DNA of 64,000 nucleotides from Alkalispirochaeta sp. (GTDB taxonomy: Bacteria > Spirochaetota > Spirochaetia > DSM-27196 > Alkalispirochaetaceae): NCBI GenBank assembly GCA_965242725.1, contig CBDESZ010000020.1, positions 45,602 through 109,601 of the forward strand, given 5' to 3'. The translations under genes and the position numbers were made by a program. Positions within the stretch are counted from its first letter, which is position 1. Each line of letters starts with the position of its first letter. The notes beneath the pieces were generated by a model. The model ran no database searches, was not told the DNA's origin, and worked only from the letters and a program-made list of their open reading frames with translations. Positions 31,702 to 42,102 of the stretch are shown piece by piece.

Positions 31702-31734
31702 AGCCGGCAGTCATCGTACTTGCCGGCTTTTTTT
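31702..31734 (+). terminator. Rho-independent terminator after the tRNAs
   Basis: AGCCGGCA..TGCCGGCT hairpin followed by a T7 tract. Confidence 0.75.
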
Positions 31735-32686
31735 ATCTCGTTTGCGACCGTTTGAGTTGTCGGAGATAGAATGTTTCACCCCGGTATTTCTTTTCAAGGA
31801 GCTGCCCCGAGCTGATCAGGTCATCGACCAGCGACCAGGGATTCCCGCCTTTTGATACGAGCCGAACCATGTCGTCCCGGCGTACCGGGTGCACGGAGGT
31901 TATGGCGAGAATACCGTCGGCAACGTTGTCGCCGGTATTGAATTCCCCTTCTTCGTGGGTCACATTCAGTTCCGTCTTGATACCGCCGTCACTGAAGGTA
32001 CGATATGCGGTGAGGATTTCCTGTTCGTCCGGTGGTTCAACCCACGACTCGGCGGGAGGGCGTGTCGGAATTGAGAGGTATGCAATATCGGGAGCGATTT
32101 GTGCGATCAGGCGTGCCAGCGCACTCACCTGTTCCGTTGTCGTGTTGAGACCTTTTACAAGCATCGTCTCCGTTGCAAAAACGCCTTGGTAACGTCGCCG
32201 GAACTCTATGATCCCTTCAATGACGGTCCGGTAGTCAAGGGACCGGGAGGGGCGGTCAATCAAACGCCATGTGTGTTCATCGGCGGCATCGATCTTCACG
32301 GAAACCCAGTCCGCCTGTGCTACAGCCGCCGTGACTTCCGGCTTGAAGAGGAGGCTTCCATTGGTAATGACCGCGCAGCGGACATCGCTTTCTTCACCGA
32401 TTCCCTGTAGGAGGGAACCAAGGTTTGTGTCGAGGGTCGGTTCCCCGTCGGGTACGATCGTGACGTAATCAACTCCGTTCTCGTCGCCGTCGTCACGAAG
32501 GACGCAAAGAACCTCGGAAGCCACGTCCACTGGGGCATAGAACTCCTGCAGTTCCGTCGTGACCCGTTGCGGCGCGCCAAGCTGGCAGTAGACACATGCG
32601 TAACTGCAATATTTTGGAGGGATATTGTTGACGCCGAGACTACGTCCCAACCGGCGTGAAGGTACGGGACCATAAATATATTTCAT
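31733..32686 (-). CDS. radical SAM protein (COG0731-like)
   Basis: YGPVPSRRLGRSLG, CSYACVYC, DGEPTL, ITNGSL. Confidence 0.88.
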   Translation of the reverse strand: MKYIYGPVPSRRLGRSLGVNNIPPKYCSYACVYCQLGAPQRVTTELQEFYAPVDVASEVLCVLRDDGDENGVDYVTIVPDGEPTLDTNLGSLLQGIGEESDVRCAVITNGSLLFKPEVTAAVAQADWVSVKIDAADEHTWRLIDRPSRSLDYRTVIEGIIEFRRRYQGVFATETMLVKGLNTTTEQVSALARLIAQIAPDIAYLSIPTRPPAESWVEPPDEQEILTAYRTFSDGGIKTELNVTHEEGEFNTGDNVADGILAITSVHPVRRDDMVRLVSKGGNPWSLVDDLISSGQLLEKKYRGETFYLRQLKRSQTR

Positions 32687-32777
32687 TATACCATAATTGT
32701 AGTTCACCGGCGGCGGCTATGAAAGGGGCGCTTCGACTCCTCCGTCCATGCCGGCGCGTCTACAGGGTATCCAATAC

Positions 32778-32845
32778 CGGTTCAACCCCGAATTGTTACG
32801 GTTCAGGCTACTCGTCCGGGCCGCGACGGATGGAGGACGTACAAT
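32778..32845 (+). promoter_or_regulatory. LytTR-type direct repeats plus -10 element upstream of the ABC operon
   Basis: CGGTTCA at 32778 and 32799 (21-bp period); TACAAT at 32840-32845; no consensus -35. Confidence 0.6.
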
Positions 32846-32877: not shown

Positions 32878-33951
32878 ATGAGACGAAACAGCATAGTACT
32901 GTTCCTGATTCTCACTGCGACGCTTGCCTTTGCGTCGGGAACCCAGGAAGGGGCGGCGGCGGACCAGCCGGAAGAACGGGAGCTTGTGGTATACAGCACC
33001 ATATTTGCTGAATATGCCGAAGCGATGAAAGAGGGATTCGAGGCACTTCATCCCGGTGTCACCGTGCATGTACTGAACCCCGGTGGAACCGAGGCGATGT
33101 TCATGAAACTGGAGTCGGAGCGTGAAAATCCCCAGGCCGATGTCGTTCACGCCGGGTCCATGATCAACTACCAGAATGCGGTAAATCTGGGGCTTCTTGA
33201 ACCATATGCGCCTCAGGCGCCGGGCTTTCAATCCTCCATCCCGGTTGGTGACGGGCAGCTGAACCTGAGTCATCCCGAAGACTACTACCACGTATGGTCG
33301 TTGATGTTTACGGGCATCATGTACAACCAACAGGTATTGGACCGATACGACCTCCCCGTACCCCGGACATATCAGGACCTGGCAAATCCCGTCTATAAGG
33401 ACCAGATCATCAGTGCCGATCCCCTGAAGTCTTCCACCGCCAGCTCCAACGTCATGGCGATGCTGCAGATATATGGGGATGACGCTCCCCAACTCTGGGC
33501 CGGCATCAATGAAAACCTTCCGTATTACTCCGGATCGAGCTCTCGGATTTACACGCTTGTGAGCAAGGGTGAATTTGCCCTGGCGATCGGTCTCTCCCGA
33601 CCGGCTCTCGTGGCGATGCAGGAAGGCTTTCCCGTGGACTTCGTTTTTCCCGCCGACGGAAGTCAGATTTACGACAACTCCATGGGTATCGTCGCCGACG
33701 CGAAGAACCCCGACCTCGCCAGAGAGTTTGTTGATTTCATTCTCAGTGACGAGATGCAGTTGAAGGGGTCGGAGTATCTCTACATTCCCGTTAAGTCCGG
33801 CGTCATCGATCCGTCGCTGCCGTTCAGTCTGGAAAGCGCCACCGCGGAGATAGGTACGATCTACTCCCCGGATCCGCAACTTGCGGACGAAAACCGGCAG
33901 CTCATCCAGGATACCTTCGGCGAGTACATTCGCAATAAAGGCACCCAATAA
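32878..33951 (+). CDS. ABC transporter substrate-binding protein (Fe3+/polyamine/thiamine class)
   Basis: AAGGAGG RBS, signal peptide, LVVYS, ENPQADV, ADPLKSST, AREFVDFILS. Confidence 0.9.
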   Translation: MRRNSIVLFLILTATLAFASGTQEGAAADQPEERELVVYSTIFAEYAEAMKEGFEALHPGVTVHVLNPGGTEAMFMKLESERENPQADVVHAGSMINYQNAVNLGLLEPYAPQAPGFQSSIPVGDGQLNLSHPEDYYHVWSLMFTGIMYNQQVLDRYDLPVPRTYQDLANPVYKDQIISADPLKSSTASSNVMAMLQIYGDDAPQLWAGINENLPYYSGSSSRIYTLVSKGEFALAIGLSRPALVAMQEGFPVDFVFPADGSQIYDNSMGIVADAKNPDLAREFVDFILSDEMQLKGSEYLYIPVKSGVIDPSLPFSLESATAEIGTIYSPDPQLADENRQLIQDTFGEYIRNKGTQ

Positions 33952-34051: not shown

Positions 34052-35692
34052 ATGATGCGACTTTCTGTTTCACGTTCCTGGTTTTTTGTAGCCTATGCGG
34101 TGGTTACGATCCTGTTGGTGGCATTTCTTGTCGTACCCATCGGAAAGCTTTTTACCGGATCCTTTTCGATCGTTGCGGATCAATCACGGCCGCTTCCCGA
34201 CGGCTTTTTTCTCTACATGCTGCGGGTTACCTGGAATACCATCCGCATGGCTATGACAACGACAATTTTGTCGGTACTGATAGCCCTGCCGTTGGCATTC
34301 ATGATCGTCAAGCTGCAGATACCGTCTGCGGGCGTCTTTCTCGGACTGCTCTCGGTTCCCCTCATTACGCCTGCGTTTATTTCCAGCTTTGCCACAATCA
34401 TCCTGCTGGGGAACAGTGGTGTGATTACCATGTTTTTCCAGTTGCTTGGTTTTGACCCGAAGACCATATACGGTTTCCGGGGGCTTGTTGTCACGCAAGT
34501 GCTTCACGCAATGCCCTACGCCCTGCTGTTGACCATTTCCGGCCTCAAGACGGTACCCCGTCATTTGGAGGAGGCGTCAATTTCGCTGGGTCACGGTGTG
34601 CTGAAAACACAGTTTTCCGTCGTGCTGCCCTATATCTTTCCTCATATACTCATGGCGGCGCTCATGGTCTTTTTGACCTCCATGGGCGATGTCGGCGGGC
34701 CCCTTATCATCGGCGGCAGCTACAAAGTTATCTCCACGGAGATCTATGCAAACTTCGTCACCTACATGGGAGACGAGAGAATACCGATCATCTTTGGTGC
34801 GTGGACGCTGCTTCTCTCGTTCATACTCCTTTTCATCGTGAATAAGCTGATGAAACTGACGGAAATAAAACACAAGTTTCGCCTCGGGATCATGACCTAT
34901 GACCACCGGCGGGCGCGTCGTGGTGCGACGGCGGCACTCGTGGTCGTCACATTTCTCTTCCTTGCCCCCTATATTGCGATCATCGTCCAGTCATTCGGTA
35001 CAATCTGGGCGTACGACTGGCTTCCCCGGGCGTTCACCGTGGACAACTATGTCACCGCCATTAAGGACTTTCACGCCATACGAAACACGATGATTCTCCT
35101 GGTGACGGTCACGCCGATCATTATCGTCGCAAGTGTCGTGTTTGCCCACATGTTCAAGAACCGGCGGGAGCTGGCGTGGATCAATTATATGACGCTGCTG
35201 CCCTTTACCATTCCCGGCGTCATCATTGCCGTGAGTCTCCTCCAGACCTATGCCGGCGTATCGCTGGGACAGCACGATCTCATTGCCACGATCTGGATTC
35301 TCATTATCGCCATCAGCATCAGGCGGCTTCCATTTGTCCTCAAGGTCATCGAGGCGGGCTTTTCGAAGATAGATGACTCACAACGGGAAGCGGCGTTCAG
35401 TCTGGGCGCATCGGAAGGCAGGACGTTCTTTTCCGTTATTCTGCCCCAATTGAAGCCGGCCATTTACACCGCTCTCGTCATAGGTATGATCAAGGTCGTT
35501 ACCGAACTGTCGTCCAGTCTGATGCTCAACCCTCCGGGGTGGAGAAACATGTCACTGTATATCGCCTATTATGTGGAAGAGGGATTCATTGCCCGCGCGT
35601 CAGCCATGGGCATTCTCTTGATCATCATCGTCGGGATCGGAACCGCCGTATCCAACACACTTCAAAAGAGGGAGGCACAGCGTAATGGCTGA
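34052..35692 (+). CDS. ABC transporter permease, two-domain FbpB type
   Basis: Two EAA loops (PRHLEEASISLG; QREAAFSLGA); about 12 hydrophobic segments. Confidence 0.92.
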   Translation: MMRLSVSRSWFFVAYAVVTILLVAFLVVPIGKLFTGSFSIVADQSRPLPDGFFLYMLRVTWNTIRMAMTTTILSVLIALPLAFMIVKLQIPSAGVFLGLLSVPLITPAFISSFATIILLGNSGVITMFFQLLGFDPKTIYGFRGLVVTQVLHAMPYALLLTISGLKTVPRHLEEASISLGHGVLKTQFSVVLPYIFPHILMAALMVFLTSMGDVGGPLIIGGSYKVISTEIYANFVTYMGDERIPIIFGAWTLLLSFILLFIVNKLMKLTEIKHKFRLGIMTYDHRRARRGATAALVVVTFLFLAPYIAIIVQSFGTIWAYDWLPRAFTVDNYVTAIKDFHAIRNTMILLVTVTPIIIVASVVFAHMFKNRRELAWINYMTLLPFTIPGVIIAVSLLQTYAGVSLGQHDLIATIWILIIAISIRRLPFVLKVIEAGFSKIDDSQREAAFSLGASEGRTFFSVILPQLKPAIYTALVIGMIKVVTELSSSLMLNPPGWRNMSLYIAYYVEEGFIARASAMGILLIIIVGIGTAVSNTLQKREAQRNG

Positions 35693-36776
35693 AATCGTGA
35701 TCGATAATCTACACAAGTCTTTCGGCAACACCGAAGCCGTCCGGGGATTGTCCATCAATATAGAAAAGGGAGAACTCGTATCACTTCTTGGACCATCGGG
35801 GTGCGGGAAGACGACCCTGCTCCGGCTCATCGCGGGGTTTGAGACACCCACGGCGGGTAACATCTTTCTCCGGGATCGTAATATAACTGAAATTCCGCCG
35901 CAAAAGCGGAATATCGGGATCGTCTTTCAGGACTACGCCGTATTTCCGACGATGAACGTCTTTGACAATGTAGCATATGGTCTACGGATACGAAAGCTTT
36001 CGAGAGAGGAAATTACCGACCGGGTTCAGGAGTATCTGGAACTTGTCGGACTGACGGGATATGAAAAGCGCCTGCCCTCACAGTTGTCCGGCGGGCAGCA
36101 GCAACGGGTCGCCCTTGCCCGGGCGCTTGTCATCAAGCCGGATGTTCTCCTTCTCGATGAACCGCTTTCCAACTTGGATGCGGCCCTCCGCCTGAGCATA
36201 CGCAAGGAGATACGGAAAATTCAGCAGTCCCTGGGAATAACGACCGTCTTTGTCACCCATGATCAGGAGGAGGCGCTCTCCATTTCAGACAAGGTCTTCG
36301 TCATGCGATTGGGCGAACTGATGCAGGGGGGAGGACCTCAGGAAATATATCGAATGCCGCGAAACGACTTTGTCGCCGGCTTCATCGGCAAGTCCAACAT
36401 CCTCTACGGGCGATTGACCGACCGGGAAGGGGGGCTTTCGCGGATCACGGTGGGTGATACGACCTTTACGACCGCATTGGGAGAGGACATACCTGCGGGC
36501 AGCGATGTATGGGTCTCCGTCCGGCCCCAGTACATCAGGATGAACCACCAGGCACCGAAGGACGCGCCCAATCAAGTATCAGGCGTCATTACCTATATCG
36601 AATATCTCGGAGGGGTTGTCAAAGGAGAAGTTTCCGTATCAGATGACCTGATCCTGGAGTTCGAGCAGCCCATACAGGGCAATGACGGATCGGCACTCCG
36701 ACTTCGCGACAACGTGACCGGTGTCGTCGACGTACGGGATATTGTGGTGGGGAGAAACATGAGACGCCTTGATTAG
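35685..36776 (+). CDS. ABC transporter ATP-binding protein (FbpC/PotA type)
   Basis: GPSGCGKT, LSGGQQQR, LLLDEP, VTHDQEEA; TOBE-like tail. Confidence 0.95.
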   Translation: MAEIVIDNLHKSFGNTEAVRGLSINIEKGELVSLLGPSGCGKTTLLRLIAGFETPTAGNIFLRDRNITEIPPQKRNIGIVFQDYAVFPTMNVFDNVAYGLRIRKLSREEITDRVQEYLELVGLTGYEKRLPSQLSGGQQQRVALARALVIKPDVLLLDEPLSNLDAALRLSIRKEIRKIQQSLGITTVFVTHDQEEALSISDKVFVMRLGELMQGGGPQEIYRMPRNDFVAGFIGKSNILYGRLTDREGGLSRITVGDTTFTTALGEDIPAGSDVWVSVRPQYIRMNHQAPKDAPNQVSGVITYIEYLGGVVKGEVSVSDDLILEFEQPIQGNDGSALRLRDNVTGVVDVRDIVVGRNMRRLD

Positions 36777-39474
36777 GCTCCGACGACTCTATAGATATCT
36801 CATTCTCGTCCCGCCGGTGATTCTCATCGGCGGGTTTCTCGTCTTACCCCTGGCAAGACTGCTCGTTCACGGATGGACCGCAGCCATCACGATCAGGGAA
36901 CCGTTGCCCCCCTTTGTATGGCCACACCTCGTCTATGTCACGAAAAACACCTTTATCATGGGCGGCTTGACGACGCTGTTTTCCCTCACCGTCGCGCTCC
37001 CGGTCGCCTTCATACTTGCAAAGACCGACCTTCCGGGTCTCCGTTTCTGGCCCGGGCTGCTCACTATCCCCATGATTTCACCCCCTTTCATCATGGCCTT
37101 TTCCACGCTGCTGCTCTATGGGAGGAGCGGTGTACTGTCCTCACTCTTTCGTGAATGGCTGGGAATCAACCTTCCCCATATATTCGGTCTGCCCGGGCTC
37201 GTACTGACCCAGCTGGTCGTATCGATACCGTACGCCACGTTTATTCTCATGGCGGGGTTCAGGGGCATTCCCAGGCACGTTGAAGAGTCGGCATACGCGG
37301 TGGGCTCGCCGCCGATGCGCGTCTTTTTTGACGTCCTATTGCCGTGTATCTATCCCCATTTGATTATCGCCGGGCTGATGGTTTTTCTCATGTCCATCGG
37401 CGACGTCGGTGGTCCGCTGATTATCGGTGGTGGATATCCCGTCATCGCATCGGAAATCTACAGCAATTTCCTTTCAGTATTGACTGACGATCGCATTGCC
37501 GTAATCCTCGGGTCCTGGATCATCATTCTCTCGTTTTTAATGGTAGGCGCGGTGAATATTCTCCTTCGGTTTACGGTAAAGCGATATCGTCCGGGTTCCG
37601 ATCCGGTGGTGTACAGACTGGGCCGTCGTCGCCCGCTTGCGCTCGTTTTTGTCGGGGCGGTCGTCGTTTGGCTGCTTCTGCCCTTTCTCATGGTCGTCGT
37701 CCAGTCTTTCGGCACGATCTGGACCGCCGAGCCGATTCCCCGGGGATGGACCCTGGACCATTACGTTCGTGTCTTTCAGGCACCCGGACTTGTGGTCAAT
37801 ACGCTGGTCCTTGCCGCGGTGGTGACGCCGGTAATCGTCGTGATAAGTATCATTCTCGGCCATTCCCTGAACATCAGACGGGGACGAAAAATCCTCAACG
37901 TCCTCATGGTCCTTCCTTTTTTGCTGCCCGGAGTCGTGTTGGCGTTGGGTGTGGTCGAAACGTATGCGACGCTCTTTGCTCACATGCGGACGATTCCCGT
38001 TTACGGGCTCTTGGCGGGGACGGTGATGATACGGCGCCTGCCATATACGTTAAAAACCCTTGAAGCGGGATATCTCGTGACGGACCGTCGTCGTGAGGAA
38101 TCCGCTACCAGTCTGGGGAGTTCACCGTTGGCCGCGTTTCTGAAGGTTACCCTTCCACAAATGCAGCCCTTCCTGCTGGCGGCATTGGTTATCGGTTTTA
38201 TAAAAGTCGCCACGGAACTGTCTGCGTCACTCATCCTCGCACCCCCCGATTGGCAAAGTCTTTCCATGGGAATCGTCTATTACATTGAACAGGGACAGCT
38301 CGGTCGCGCTTCGGCGATGAGCGTCGTGCTGGTCGTCCTCATCGGAACCGGCACTTTCACCGTGATGTACCGCCTTCATGGCGCGCGGGGTTATGAAGGC
38401 AATGACGGCGATCAGCGTGATCGTGAACACCTGCGGTCGGATGACGCTCTGGAAGGCATCGTTCTCGGTCGGACACCGGTGATCGTACCGACACCAAACC
38501 GGGGAAGAACCGGCATTGTTTCCGTGCGGCCCGCCTGGGGCCGATGGGAGCCCCGGCTCGTGGTGGACTCCCGTTATGGGATCGTCGATGCGAGCAGGGG
38601 ATTCCTGCGGCTCGTCGGCGCCTCCACCGTCGATGAATTGAAACGGGAGGGTCGTTTCTCGGTTCTCTTCTTCAGTGACCGTACGTTACTGGAGATATTC
38701 TCCACGCGGGAGGCGGTGCAGGAGCGGGCGACATCGATCATGACCCTGTCGGGAGCGCGTATCCCCGTCATCGTCTACGCCAATGTGGTGGAACGGGACC
38801 AGGGTGATGTCATAGGATATTTTTACTGTCGCCGCGTCTCCGGGCGCTCGCGCCGTCTCCGGGAGTACCGACGTCTCAGGGATCGTATGGCTACGGCTGA
38901 ACAGGAAATACTCAAGGCGCAGATCACCCCGCACCTCCTCTTCAACACCCTCAATAACATCGCCCACATGATAGGAGAGGAGCCTGAGGAGGCGCGGGAT
39001 GTCGTTCAGAGTCTGGCGGACCTCTATCGATATACCCTTGCCGCCACAAAGAAGGAGCTCGTGCCCCTGGCGGATGAGGTGGAGACGATTCGGCGCTATC
39101 TTTCCATAGAGAAAGCGCGTTTTGGCGAGCGCTTGACGTGGCAGATCGACGTAAAGCCCGCCGCACAGGGCGTCTGGATTCCACCGATGATATTGCAGCC
39201 TATCGTCGAAAACGCCGTCACCCACGGCGCCGACGAGAGGGGCCGGATCCGGGTGGATGTTGTTGTCGCAAGGAGCGGTGATGATATCGTCATGTCGGTG
39301 AGGGACCACGGAGCTACCCCCTTTGACGAGGAAGCTCTCGTTTCCGGGAGCGGTACGGGATTGCGTAACGTGGAGGGACGTCTCTATGCGCTGTATGGGC
39401 GGCATCTGCAATTTGAACGATTCCCTGATGGTGGACTGAGGGTAATTATGACCCTGCCGGAACGGAAGGAATGA
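36769..39474 (+). CDS. fusion: FbpB-type ABC permease + PAS-like segment + LytS-type histidine kinase
   Basis: Single 901-aa ORF. EAA loops PRHVEESAYAVG and RREESATSLG; H-box LKAQITPHLLFNTLN; N-box LQPIVENAVTHG; DHG; GTGLRNV. Confidence 0.9.
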   Translation: MIRLRRLYRYLILVPPVILIGGFLVLPLARLLVHGWTAAITIREPLPPFVWPHLVYVTKNTFIMGGLTTLFSLTVALPVAFILAKTDLPGLRFWPGLLTIPMISPPFIMAFSTLLLYGRSGVLSSLFREWLGINLPHIFGLPGLVLTQLVVSIPYATFILMAGFRGIPRHVEESAYAVGSPPMRVFFDVLLPCIYPHLIIAGLMVFLMSIGDVGGPLIIGGGYPVIASEIYSNFLSVLTDDRIAVILGSWIIILSFLMVGAVNILLRFTVKRYRPGSDPVVYRLGRRRPLALVFVGAVVVWLLLPFLMVVVQSFGTIWTAEPIPRGWTLDHYVRVFQAPGLVVNTLVLAAVVTPVIVVISIILGHSLNIRRGRKILNVLMVLPFLLPGVVLALGVVETYATLFAHMRTIPVYGLLAGTVMIRRLPYTLKTLEAGYLVTDRRREESATSLGSSPLAAFLKVTLPQMQPFLLAALVIGFIKVATELSASLILAPPDWQSLSMGIVYYIEQGQLGRASAMSVVLVVLIGTGTFTVMYRLHGARGYEGNDGDQRDREHLRSDDALEGIVLGRTPVIVPTPNRGRTGIVSVRPAWGRWEPRLVVDSRYGIVDASRGFLRLVGASTVDELKREGRFSVLFFSDRTLLEIFSTREAVQERATSIMTLSGARIPVIVYANVVERDQGDVIGYFYCRRVSGRSRRLREYRRLRDRMATAEQEILKAQITPHLLFNTLNNIAHMIGEEPEEARDVVQSLADLYRYTLAATKKELVPLADEVETIRRYLSIEKARFGERLTWQIDVKPAAQGVWIPPMILQPIVENAVTHGADERGRIRVDVVVARSGDDIVMSVRDHGATPFDEEALVSGSGTGLRNVEGRLYALYGRHLQFERFPDGGLRVIMTLPERKE

Positions 39475-39475
39475 C

Positions 39476-40387
39476 ATGGAAAGACCGGTCATACGTATTT
39501 GCATTATTGACGACGAATTTCGTGCCCGGCGGCGCATCGCACATCTCCTTGAGGCCGAGAAACGGTGCACGGTGGTAGGCGAGGCCGATAACGGCGGAGA
39601 CGCCGTGGAACTGATCGACCGGGAAAAGCCGGATCTGGTCTTCCTCGATATACGCATGCCCGGCCTGAGCGGGTTTCAGGTACTGCAGCGAGCTCTTCAC
39701 CGTCCCGCGGTAATATTCGTCACCGCCTACGACGAGCACGCCGTACAGGCATTTGAAGTTCACGCGGTGGACTACCTGCTCAAGCCGTTTCCGGACGAAC
39801 GATTTCGTGATGCCCTTAGGCGCGCGACGGAACGCGTGTGGCCGCCGTCGGGATCCGATGCGGCCGCACACAATACGGCAGCGTCCAATATCGCCGGCGA
39901 CGAAGAAACTGACGGGCTCGTGCCGGCGTTGGCGGGCGGCGTGGGCGAGGCGCTCCTTGCGGAGCTGCAGCGGCTGACATATGGCCCCGACCGGCGCACC
40001 GCGGAGGACGGCAACGCAGTTCGGGAAGCGGAAACGGGACATCCCGTACTGGAACGTGTCCCGGTACGCCGGGGATTTGAATTTGAAATGGTACCCGTGG
40101 CCGGCGTTGACTACTTCACCGTTATCGACGGTCTCGTTTTTCTCGTACGGGACGGACGACGAGTCGTTGTAGACCATACGCTCTCAGAGCTGGAATTGCG
40201 GCTCGACGCTCGTAAATTCATGCGGGTCCACCGCAAAAGCCTGGTGAATATCAATAGGGTCGAACGCGTGGTGCCCTGGGGGCGTGGCCGCATCGCCCTC
40301 CATTTCACTGGTGAAGAAGAAGCGGAGCCCGTACACGTCGGTCGGGACCGCACCCAGGAAGTGAAGAGGCGTCTGGGAATCCCCTGA
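39476..40387 (+). CDS. LytTR family response regulator
   Basis: IDDE, FLDIRMPG, FVTAYD, DYLLKP; LytTR 'TLSELE..FMRVHRKSLVN'. Confidence 0.93.
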   Translation: MERPVIRICIIDDEFRARRRIAHLLEAEKRCTVVGEADNGGDAVELIDREKPDLVFLDIRMPGLSGFQVLQRALHRPAVIFVTAYDEHAVQAFEVHAVDYLLKPFPDERFRDALRRATERVWPPSGSDAAAHNTAASNIAGDEETDGLVPALAGGVGEALLAELQRLTYGPDRRTAEDGNAVREAETGHPVLERVPVRRGFEFEMVPVAGVDYFTVIDGLVFLVRDGRRVVVDHTLSELELRLDARKFMRVHRKSLVNINRVERVVPWGRGRIALHFTGEEEAEPVHVGRDRTQEVKRRLGIP

Positions 40388-40440
40388 CGTGAACCCCGAA
40401 AACCTTGTTTTCATCGGTATGCTGCAGGTACTATGCATCC

Positions 40441-42102
40441 ATGAGCAGCCGGCCGGAACACCCCTTCGATGTCTACTATAAACGCGGATGGATCTATGTT
40501 GTGGTTCGTCCCGGCGAAGGGGGTGCGGAGGCCGTGCGGCCACCGGTTTATCCCGAGGACATTGAAAACCGCATGCGCCTTCTGGGAATGCCGAAAGTTC
40601 GATCGGGCGTGCTCCTCCGCCTCATCGACGAAGCGACGGGGGAGGCGGAGCGCCTTGTAAAGTGGCCGGAAGGCGAGCGCCTGGCTTCACGCATCTCCGT
40701 GGCGATATCGGACGATGAGATGAGCGCTTCCATTTCAGTAACAAAACCGCGTCGGGGCGCCGTCGGCCCCGACAGGGAAGACATCCTCAAGGCCCTTGAC
40801 GCCGCCGGTGTGACATTCGGAATCGATGAGGATGCAATCGCCGAGTTTCTTGCACACCCTCGTTACGACGAAAAGACAACCGTCGCCGTCGGAGGCGAGC
40901 CCGTATCCGGATCGGCACGCCGCGTGGAATACCGCTTCAAAGTGGATCGGGGAAAACCGTACCTCCAGATGCCCTTTGACCGCATCAACCTGCGGGAACT
41001 GAACTTTGTGGACAACAGGAAAGAGGGTGACGTTCTCGCTGTTCTCCTTCCTCCCGTGAAGGCGAAGGACGGGAAAACGGTCACGGGTACCACCATTCCC
41101 GCCGCTACCGACGAGACCGTGGTGATCCTCCCGGCGGGAGAAAATACCCGCCTTGACGAGGAGGGGACCGAACTCATCGCCGCCTGTGACGGGAATGTCC
41201 GTTTTCACAACGGACTGGTGATCGTGGAACCGGTAATCGAGGTGGAGAACGTCAATTATGAGACGGGAAATATTCACTTTGACGGATCGGTGGTTGTTGC
41301 GGGAAGCGTCGCCGACGGCTTCATCGTGGAAGCGGGAGGATCTATACAGATCGGACGGGGCGTCGGACGGGCGCAACTCCGGGCAGGCGAAAATATACTC
41401 CTCACCAGCGGCATGAACGGAAACGGCGAAGGTGTTCTCGAGTGCGGCGGAAATCTCTTTGCCCGGTATATCGAGAGTGCGACGGTCCGGTGCAAGGGCA
41501 ACGTTCTTGTCGAAGAGGCGATTCTCCACTCGACAATCACCGTCTGGAATCACTGTATCCTCAATGGACGACGGGCGGAGTGCATCGGCGGTGAGCTCAT
41601 TGTCGGAGGAAGTCTCTGGTGCCGGAAGCTGGGTAATCGTAACGACGCACAGACCCTCGTCGCCATCGGCGTTCCGCCGGAACTCTTTGAGGAGTACCGC
41701 ACCGCCCGGGGAGAGCTGGACGCCAAGGAGGATGAGGTGGAAGAACTTGAAGAAAAACTCCGCCGCATAGAACGGGCGATCGACGACGGCAGGACCGATG
41801 AAAAGTACCTTGCCGCCCGGGAGCAGCTGAGGATAGATCTCGCCCGGGAGGGCGTCCAGATCGACGTCCTGCGTCGCCGAGTGCCTGCTCTACGGGATCG
41901 CCTTGATCCGACTACGGCGAGTTTTGTCGTCGCCGAGGAGACAATCTTCAACGGCGTCACCGTCACCTTCGGTAAACAGGAGTATCGCGTGCCCCAGACG
42001 GGCACCCGGAAGGCACTTCTCCACGTCACCCGTGACGCCATCAAGGTGGAAGGATTCAACCGCCAGACACCACCCAAAATCGAGTTTACCCTGCCGGTGT
42101 AG
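40441..42102 (+). CDS. FapA/DUF342 family protein
   Basis: ISDDEMSA, GVTFGID, GKTVTG, GENT, VNYETGNIHFDGSV..GSV..GFIV, coiled coil near the C-terminus. Confidence 0.85.
   Translation: MSSRPEHPFDVYYKRGWIYVVVRPGEGGAEAVRPPVYPEDIENRMRLLGMPKVRSGVLLRLIDEATGEAERLVKWPEGERLASRISVAISDDEMSASISVTKPRRGAVGPDREDILKALDAAGVTFGIDEDAIAEFLAHPRYDEKTTVAVGGEPVSGSARRVEYRFKVDRGKPYLQMPFDRINLRELNFVDNRKEGDVLAVLLPPVKAKDGKTVTGTTIPAATDETVVILPAGENTRLDEEGTELIAACDGNVRFHNGLVIVEPVIEVENVNYETGNIHFDGSVVVAGSVADGFIVEAGGSIQIGRGVGRAQLRAGENILLTSGMNGNGEGVLECGGNLFARYIESATVRCKGNVLVEEAILHSTITVWNHCILNGRRAECIGGELIVGGSLWCRKLGNRNDAQTLVAIGVPPELFEEYRTARGELDAKEDEVEELEEKLRRIERAIDDGRTDEKYLAAREQLRIDLAREGVQIDVLRRRVPALRDRLDPTTASFVVAEETIFNGVTVTFGKQEYRVPQTGTRKALLHVTRDAIKVEGFNRQTPPKIEFTLPV

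Follow-up and report, generated by a model that had tools for sequence, protein, structure and literature searches.

A permease of the type I ABC importer fold fused to a LytS-type histidine kinase in a conserved five-gene cassette of spirochaetes

The 64,000-nucleotide stretch of Alkalispirochaeta DNA analyzed here (hereafter, the window) encodes a single chain of 901 amino acids in which a complete two-domain ABC importer permease is joined, via a linker and a PAS domain, to a PF06580 histidine kinase. This architecture, a transporter-derived kinase built on a type I ABC importer, is conserved and, within the literature searched, undescribed: we found no description there of an ABC importer permease fused to a kinase, and subscription papers or supplementary domain-architecture tables may list one. 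The fused gene belongs to a set of five co-oriented genes that encode a binding protein, a permease, an ATPase, the fused protein and a LytTR regulator. We give about even chances to a scenario in which the permease part is the sensor of the kinase, with the binding protein and the ATPase docking on it and the operon being induced through the LytTR regulator. The features of the cassette are as follows.

32777–32805, plus strand: two 8-bp direct repeats with a 21-bp period, a predicted LytTR operator, 101 bp before the binding-protein start
32878–33951, plus strand: solute-binding protein, 357 aa, related to P5PA and AfuA (Pfam; solved-structure matches)
34052–35692, plus strand: stand-alone two-domain permease, 546 aa, likely the transporting copy (Pfam; mean of 75.5% identity between loci)
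35685–36776, plus strand: ABC ATPase with a TOBE domain, 363 aa, the only ATPase of the cassette (Pfam)
36769–38382, plus strand: second permease copy with both EAA loops, residues 1–538 of the fused gene (Pfam; FbpB match)
38383–38544, plus strand: linker with a conserved LExLxLGRTP-like motif, modelled at low confidence, residues 539–592 of the fused gene
38545–38838, plus strand: PAS domain, which one subgroup of relatives lacks, residues ~593–690 of the fused gene
38839–39474, plus strand: signalling helix, PF06580 phospho-acceptor domain (His722) and HATPase_c, residues 691–901 of the fused gene
39476–40387, plus strand: receiver-LytTR response regulator, 303 aa, one base after the fused-gene stop (Pfam Response_reg and LytTR)

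The initial annotation had proposed one uninterrupted reading frame that joins an FbpB-type permease to a kinase, with a LytTR regulator starting 2 nt later, and both points were confirmed: the frame spans 36769–39474 on the plus strand, its TTG start overlaps the ATPase stop codon, and the regulator starts at 39476, following the stop at 39474. Pfam places BPD_transp_1 in two stretches of the fused protein, His_kinase (PF06580) at residues 710–789 (E 4e-26) and HATPase_c at 808–899. Two BPD_transp_1 halves in one chain, each with its EAA coupling loop, are the hallmark of FbpB/AfuB-type permeases, and the AlphaFold model (mean pLDDT 71) matches FbpB of the FbpBC importer (9j4r_A; TM 0.82 of target) as well as LOV-kinase structures over ~360 columns. 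Confidence falls below 50 in the linker (537–592), a segment of ~55 residues that varies in length among homologues and is poorly modelled. Although Pfam has no match for the PAS-like stretch of the window protein, likewise pointed out initially, modelling of the middle part on its own (pLDDT 85) gave a PAS domain with a long helix after it, and this model resembles solved PAS/LOV domains (best E 3.5e-6). ESM Atlas, with neither a cluster at 0.9 or above nor a model, was uninformative, and prediction of a complex of the fused permease with the ATPase domain and the linker-PAS segment scored 0.00, which is evidence neither for nor against. BPD_transp_1 is the only transporter domain that Pfam detects in the fused protein, with no Amt or SLC5-STAC domain.

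The assignment of the kinase to LytS holds in part. The LytS-type core is intact, with the QITPH (His722), ENAVTHG, DHG and GTGL motifs all in place, and the P721-H722 pair is invariant, followed by Phe (PHF) in most homologues and by Leu (PHL) in the window protein, in keeping with the Pro before, and the aromatic or hydrophobic residue after, the phospho-His that the accessible text on this family describes (PMC10653868). The 5TMR-LYT input domain (PF07694) that defines LytS proper, however, is missing, with no match in the fused protein at E up to 0.1.

The fusion is genuine, given that 20 other full-length clusters carry the same three Pfam domains, which amounts to independent proof. Among the 7998 candidates scored, 21 full-length 90%-identity clusters, including that of the window, cover 94–100% of the protein and all contain the same three families, the other 20 being 37–77% identical to the window protein. 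A profile search of 1.84 billion representatives added one full-length protein (P0138), one partial protein (P0139) and a PAS-less group, from which a search with P0143 recovered 13 full-length clusters and one partial; in the PAS-less members, the last core motif lies 134–180 residues from the phospho-His, versus 228–246 in the PAS-bearing ones. Neither a stop nor a frameshift separates permease from kinase in the window, and the homologues are fused, not split; the intact reading frame and the conserved fused homologues rule out an assembly or frameshift artefact. The region 36500–40500 is also found in one piece, with zero differences, in four public assemblies of one sample, at low depth, but these may be the source of the window itself and, therefore, are not independent proof. 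A search of shorter proteins with residues 540–760 yielded only 17 weak matches covering 24–49% of that segment, all of them ordinary PF06580 kinases, so that split homologues were rejected. One protein, P0023 (539 aa), falls within the fused clade, yet ends after the last membrane helix and, judging from its sequence, may be a split form.

The fused gene or a part of it is carried by 29 loci, several of which are the same or near-identical contigs. The five-gene order, the conservation of which was a point raised in the initial annotation, is identical in all 19 loci that reach all five genes and also in the PAS-less loci L140 and L141; the other 10 of the 29 are cut off by contig ends, and what they contain agrees with this order, and the regulator adjoins the fused gene wherever the locus is long enough. 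Sixteen of the 19 have an unbroken fused frame; in L010, L046 and L047 it is broken together with neighbouring cassette genes; L009 has an extra small ORF ahead of the regulator. In L143, the stand-alone permease is short, and a deletion was rejected as the cause because the gap consists of unknown bases in the assembly. All 11 named genome records with the cassette belong to Spirochaetota, as does every fetched locus with a resolved taxon (two protein records carry other or no labels). Even there, the cassette is rare: with partial matches counted, it was found only in the source genome among 401 in a phylum sample, in 7 of 401 genomes of a class sample, in 5 of 401 of another order and in 3 of 61 near relatives. 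For 33 weak PAS matches in the phylum sample, no permease was present within the 1.5-kb flanks of the 29 loci fetched. No flanking gene families are common beyond close relatives, which provides no hint of a ligand and suggests a self-contained module that has been moved or often lost. In the window, a FapA-family gene (40405–42102), common only to L008 and L036, lies directly 3' of the cassette, and a radical SAM gene (31733–32707, minus strand), divergent from the cassette and not conserved in the other loci, lies on the other side. A sigma-70 and terminator scan gave results at chance level.

The known systems closest to this architecture, here compared on the basis of the accessible text of the cited reports, each share some of its features. 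Ca. Kuenenia stuttgartiensis has, in Ks-Amt5, a histidine kinase to which an entire transporter membrane domain is likewise attached as the sensor, but there the fold is that of an Amt channel that binds the ligand directly (PMC5764959), rather than that of a type I ABC importer permease. CbrA similarly combines a transporter, a PAS domain and a kinase in one chain (SLC5-STAC-PAS kinase; PMC13022988, PMC7096432) and has been called a rare transceptor (PMC13022988); it is, however, a secondary symporter with a STAC linker and, as far as these reports go, no stand-alone twin, whereas the protein described here has an ABC permease, no STAC match, a PF06580 kinase and a LytTR output, and is duplicated within its own operon. 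In BceAB-BceS and PstSCAB-PhoU-PhoR, an ABC transporter controls a kinase that regulates transporter genes, but each partner is a polypeptide of its own, and what the kinase reads is the working transporter itself (PMC6978683, PMC8534201), whereas here a dedicated second permease is covalently the input of the kinase; reviews name Ks-Amt5 as the transporter-fused kinase and BceAB or PstSCAB as separate partners (PMC8534201, PMC6978683). In HptA-HptS, XylFII-LytS and SpsB-SpsK, uptake genes are induced by a kinase that receives the ligand from a binding protein, with docking, for HptS and LytS, on a periplasmic Cache or four-helix domain (PMC8050422, PMC4049939), and no such domain is present in the fused protein; HptA is a distant relative of the window's binding protein (6lkg, E 8e-7). 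LytS/BtsS share with the cassette the PF06580 core and the LytTR partner (PMC10653868, PMC11109136), but neither 5TMR-LYT, a fold itself related to ECF S-components (PMC11109136), nor GAF is found here, where the input is a recognizable, recent paralogue of the neighbouring permease. The FbpBC, AfuABC and P5PAB importers have the same single-chain, two-domain permease fold and the same binding-protein family, without the kinase fusion.

Control of kinases by ABC transporters is hard to dissect because the partners, as in PstSCAB-PhoR and BceAB-BceS, are separate polypeptides that associate transiently. In the fused protein, permease and kinase share one chain, a kinase-free twin in the same operon provides a built-in control, and the natural PAS-less variants, along with a likely operator for a reporter, could aid the dissection. 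Type I ABC importers would join the few transporter folds that serve kinases as inputs, and the cassette could become a chassis for sensors with specificity set by the binding protein.

The two permeases of the cassette are paralogues, with 41% identity between the first 530 residues of the fused protein and the stand-alone copy, and together they form one subfamily as against 14 other FbpB-like permeases (SH-aLRT 100). Mean identity across 11 loci is highest for the binding protein (80%), followed by the stand-alone permease (76%) and the ATPase (75%), and is lower for the fused permease (60%), the kinase (59%) and the regulator (61%), so that the fused permease diverges at the rate of the kinase. 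The stand-alone copy is the more conserved one in 54 of 55 locus pairs, which are not independent. Nevertheless, the fused permease is under purifying selection, with dN/dS of 0.047–0.112 versus 0.031–0.043 for the stand-alone copy (five pairs with dS <1; four saturated pairs left out). An alignment of 22 fused and 18 stand-alone rows, from which 7 near-duplicates had been removed, has 97 columns that are conserved in both copies; these take in E173, G179, P192, E444, G450 and P463 of the EAA loops as well as the core motifs GDxGxP and TEL. The EAA Glu, Gly and Pro show no variation across the 21 PAS-bearing proteins, and almost every PAS-less protein retains them. The EAA segments as a whole are less conserved among the fused than among the stand-alone copies (0.55 versus 0.69 and 0.59 versus 0.73). 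Thirteen columns switch between the copies, several from polar to apolar; the cytoplasmic loop 270–284, although conserved within each of the two copies, shows only 11% similarity when they are compared; and the main fused clade has lost the polar S111, H152 and E510 (stand-alone numbering), which are largely kept in the deep-branching and PAS-less fused members. In the permease tree, the stand-alone copies have short branches and the fused ones form three lineages, one of which sits inside the stand-alone group on a long branch. Other rearranged permeases were encountered as well: P0223 (1017 aa) joins a two-domain FbpB-type permease to a binding-protein domain, and P0219 (1145 aa) has four BPD_transp_1 stretches, that is, two permeases in one chain.

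As a rule of the family, permeases of type I ABC importers depend on a binding protein and an ATPase, and they turn outward in response to the loaded binding protein and to the binding of ATP by the ATPase dimer. In the scenario that we prefer, the ligand-loaded binding protein and the single ATPase of the cassette would dock on the fused permease, and the shape change of the latter would switch the kinase, conceivably along a path from the last membrane helix via the linker, the PAS domain and the signalling helix to His722; the kinase would then phosphorylate the adjacent LytTR regulator, which would bind the upstream repeat and induce the five-gene operon, presumably by activation rather than repression. 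The stand-alone copy would transport and the fused copy would mostly sense, so that two complexes, one that imports and one that reports, would share the binding protein and the ATPase. Because there is one intact ATPase gene (Walker A, signature, Walker B and H-loop are invariant) and two permeases with coupling loops, such sharing is the simplest model. The docking and the permease-to-kinase coupling are inferred from the comparative analysis. The role of the permease as the sensor is supported by its being the only input common to the PAS-bearing and PAS-less members, by the purifying selection that acts on it, and by its taking the place of the periplasmic sensor and HAMP found in sibling kinases. 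The long, variable and poorly modelled linker fits loose coupling and counts against tight coupling, as does CbrA, the kinase activity of which is reported not to be significantly affected by substrate, with the transporter domain not essential for it (PMC7096432), so that fusion need not mean coupling. Equally balanced, in our estimation, is the case for a more general view of the importer complex as a receptor, its alternating-access cycle being an ATP-driven switch for the attached kinase; that such a receptor would represent a class separate from the Amt- and SLC5-based transceptors is a proposition for which we see the scales as level.

A rather less probable alternative is that the fused permease is itself a working importer served by the shared ATPase, with the kinase reading the transport cycle, that is, flux. 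The conserved core and coupling motifs and the strong purifying selection on the fused permease are compatible with this, and CbrA is described as both transporting and phosphorylating (PMC7096432). Furthermore, one locus (L129; 4488–10328 of G643:C16) encompasses the binding protein, ATPase, fused gene and regulator without the stand-alone permease, and no close stand-alone permease is found elsewhere in this 90%-complete genome. However, all four cassette genes in L129 are frameshifted, with several breaks at single-base runs, so that this cassette, which may be decaying or mis-assembled, is only a hint; and the coexistence, in nearly all loci, of a faster-changing copy with a conserved one suggests division of labour instead. 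The L129 cassette is preceded, as read from sequence, by a kynureninase-like gene and one for an amino-acid permease.

It is improbable, in our assessment, that the fused permease only docks the loaded binding protein, without the ATPase and in the manner of HptA-HptS or XylFII-LytS, and retains its EAA loops for folding. The lower conservation of the EAA segments in the fused copies would fit such a receptor, as would the sibling system, in which a binding protein has no adjoining ATPase gene, and binding-protein-stimulated kinases are well known (PMC8050422, accessible text); yet the EAA Glu, Gly and Pro are invariant in the PAS-bearing proteins and persist almost throughout the PAS-less ones, and, as a weaker point, L129 keeps the ATPase gene in the absence of the stand-alone permease. 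Least probable is an uncoupled fusion, with the permease as an anchor and the PAS domain sensing the imported ligand or another cytoplasmic cue: the long, low-confidence linker, the purifying selection on the PAS part and the precedent of CbrA, the PAS domain of which is reported to bind its substrate (PMC13022988), are all in its favor, but 13 full-length PAS-less clusters keep the permease, the kinase and, where seen, the gene order, and an anchor needs no 540-residue permease at dN/dS ~0.05–0.1.

A predicted operator bears on the regulatory end of the preferred scenario, sensing by the fused permease. The regulator keeps its phosphorylation residues (D13, D58, T83 and K103 are invariant); in the window, it has an Ala/Gly-rich insert of ~50 residues between the receiver and LytTR domains (39836–40045), absent from all 8 aligned relatives. 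The 170-bp region between the radical SAM gene and the cassette holds the repeat, and most loci have two or three repeats with the 21-bp period ahead of the binding-protein gene, a period that matches the spacing of published LytTR sites; LytTR domains are described as binding 9-bp repeats 12–13 bp apart with a GTT core (PMC5600425, accessible text). With no motif assumed and 6 near-identical regions dropped, a lag-21 repeat is detected in 9 of 14 upstream regions (in one of the nine, L142, the repeat sequence is different) and is missing or degenerate in the other 5; no other lag from 12 to 35 scores in more than 3 of the 14, and 500 shuffles of the upstream regions gave a mean of 0.48 and a maximum of 3. 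A matrix derived from 10 other loci ranks the window site first in the 4.3-Mb genome (26.3 versus 21.9 for the next), a ranking that is not fully blind because the window, along with two other loci, is where the motif was originally noticed. The predicted regulon, it seems, is the cassette itself.

The source annotations name the cassette iron(III), but the binding protein points elsewhere: its closest solved relatives are P5PA and AfuA (E 1e-25 to 1e-22), and iron binders match only at 1e-7 or weaker, so that ferric iron was rejected and, on sequence grounds, is likely not the ligand. According to the accessible text on AfuA and P5PA (PMC4546632, PMC8427247) for the residue roles, the phosphate clamp is kept, with AfuA Ser37, Thr60, Ser148 and Thr150 and P5PA Ser183 aligning to T71, S94, S185, T187 and S220, all invariant in 8 of 8 proteins (mapping read by eye from HMMER alignments). 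In a separate comparison of pocket residues, the rows of P0038, P0039 and P0295 were left out. The sugar-recognition residues of AfuA, His205, Asp206 and Glu229, align to R241, P242 and Y265 and are not kept. We slightly favor, therefore, a small organic anion with a phosphate or phosphonate group as the candidate ligand, perhaps with a carboxylate for R241.

The origin of the kinase module appears to lie in a family of siblings. The next-best profile matches are proteins of ~680 aa that align to residues ~550–888 of the fused protein and share its PAS-kinase module, which in them follows an ordinary periplasmic sensor and HAMP; their N-terminus was read as TM, periplasmic helices, TM and HAMP, the HAMP match being weak, so that the permease takes the input position of this TM-periplasmic-TM-HAMP unit. 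The sibling in the window genome, P0188, lies between a binding-protein gene and a LytTR gene. Its locus (L111:5017–12410, G000:C26; gene identities read from sequence) comprises a binding-protein gene with no ATPase gene beside it, the TM-HAMP-PAS PF06580 kinase, the LytTR regulator and, ahead of a TRAP operon, a repeat of similar sequence with a 21-bp period, and cross-talk between the regulators of the two systems is possible. In a quick kinase tree, the fused kinases form two groups at an unresolved fork with the sibling family, and neither this tree nor that of the permeases shows or excludes a single origin of the fusion. The sibling family is, nevertheless, the probable donor of the kinase module, and duplication of the permease combined with an input swap with this family is the probable route of origin. 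For a few residues, the motif conserved in the linker can be aligned with the final HAMP helix of the sibling proteins, a weak hint that it might mark the fusion junction. Six further proteins of 650–825 aa (P0158, P0159, P0162, P0163, P0169 and P0170) contain two PF06580 cores in tandem.
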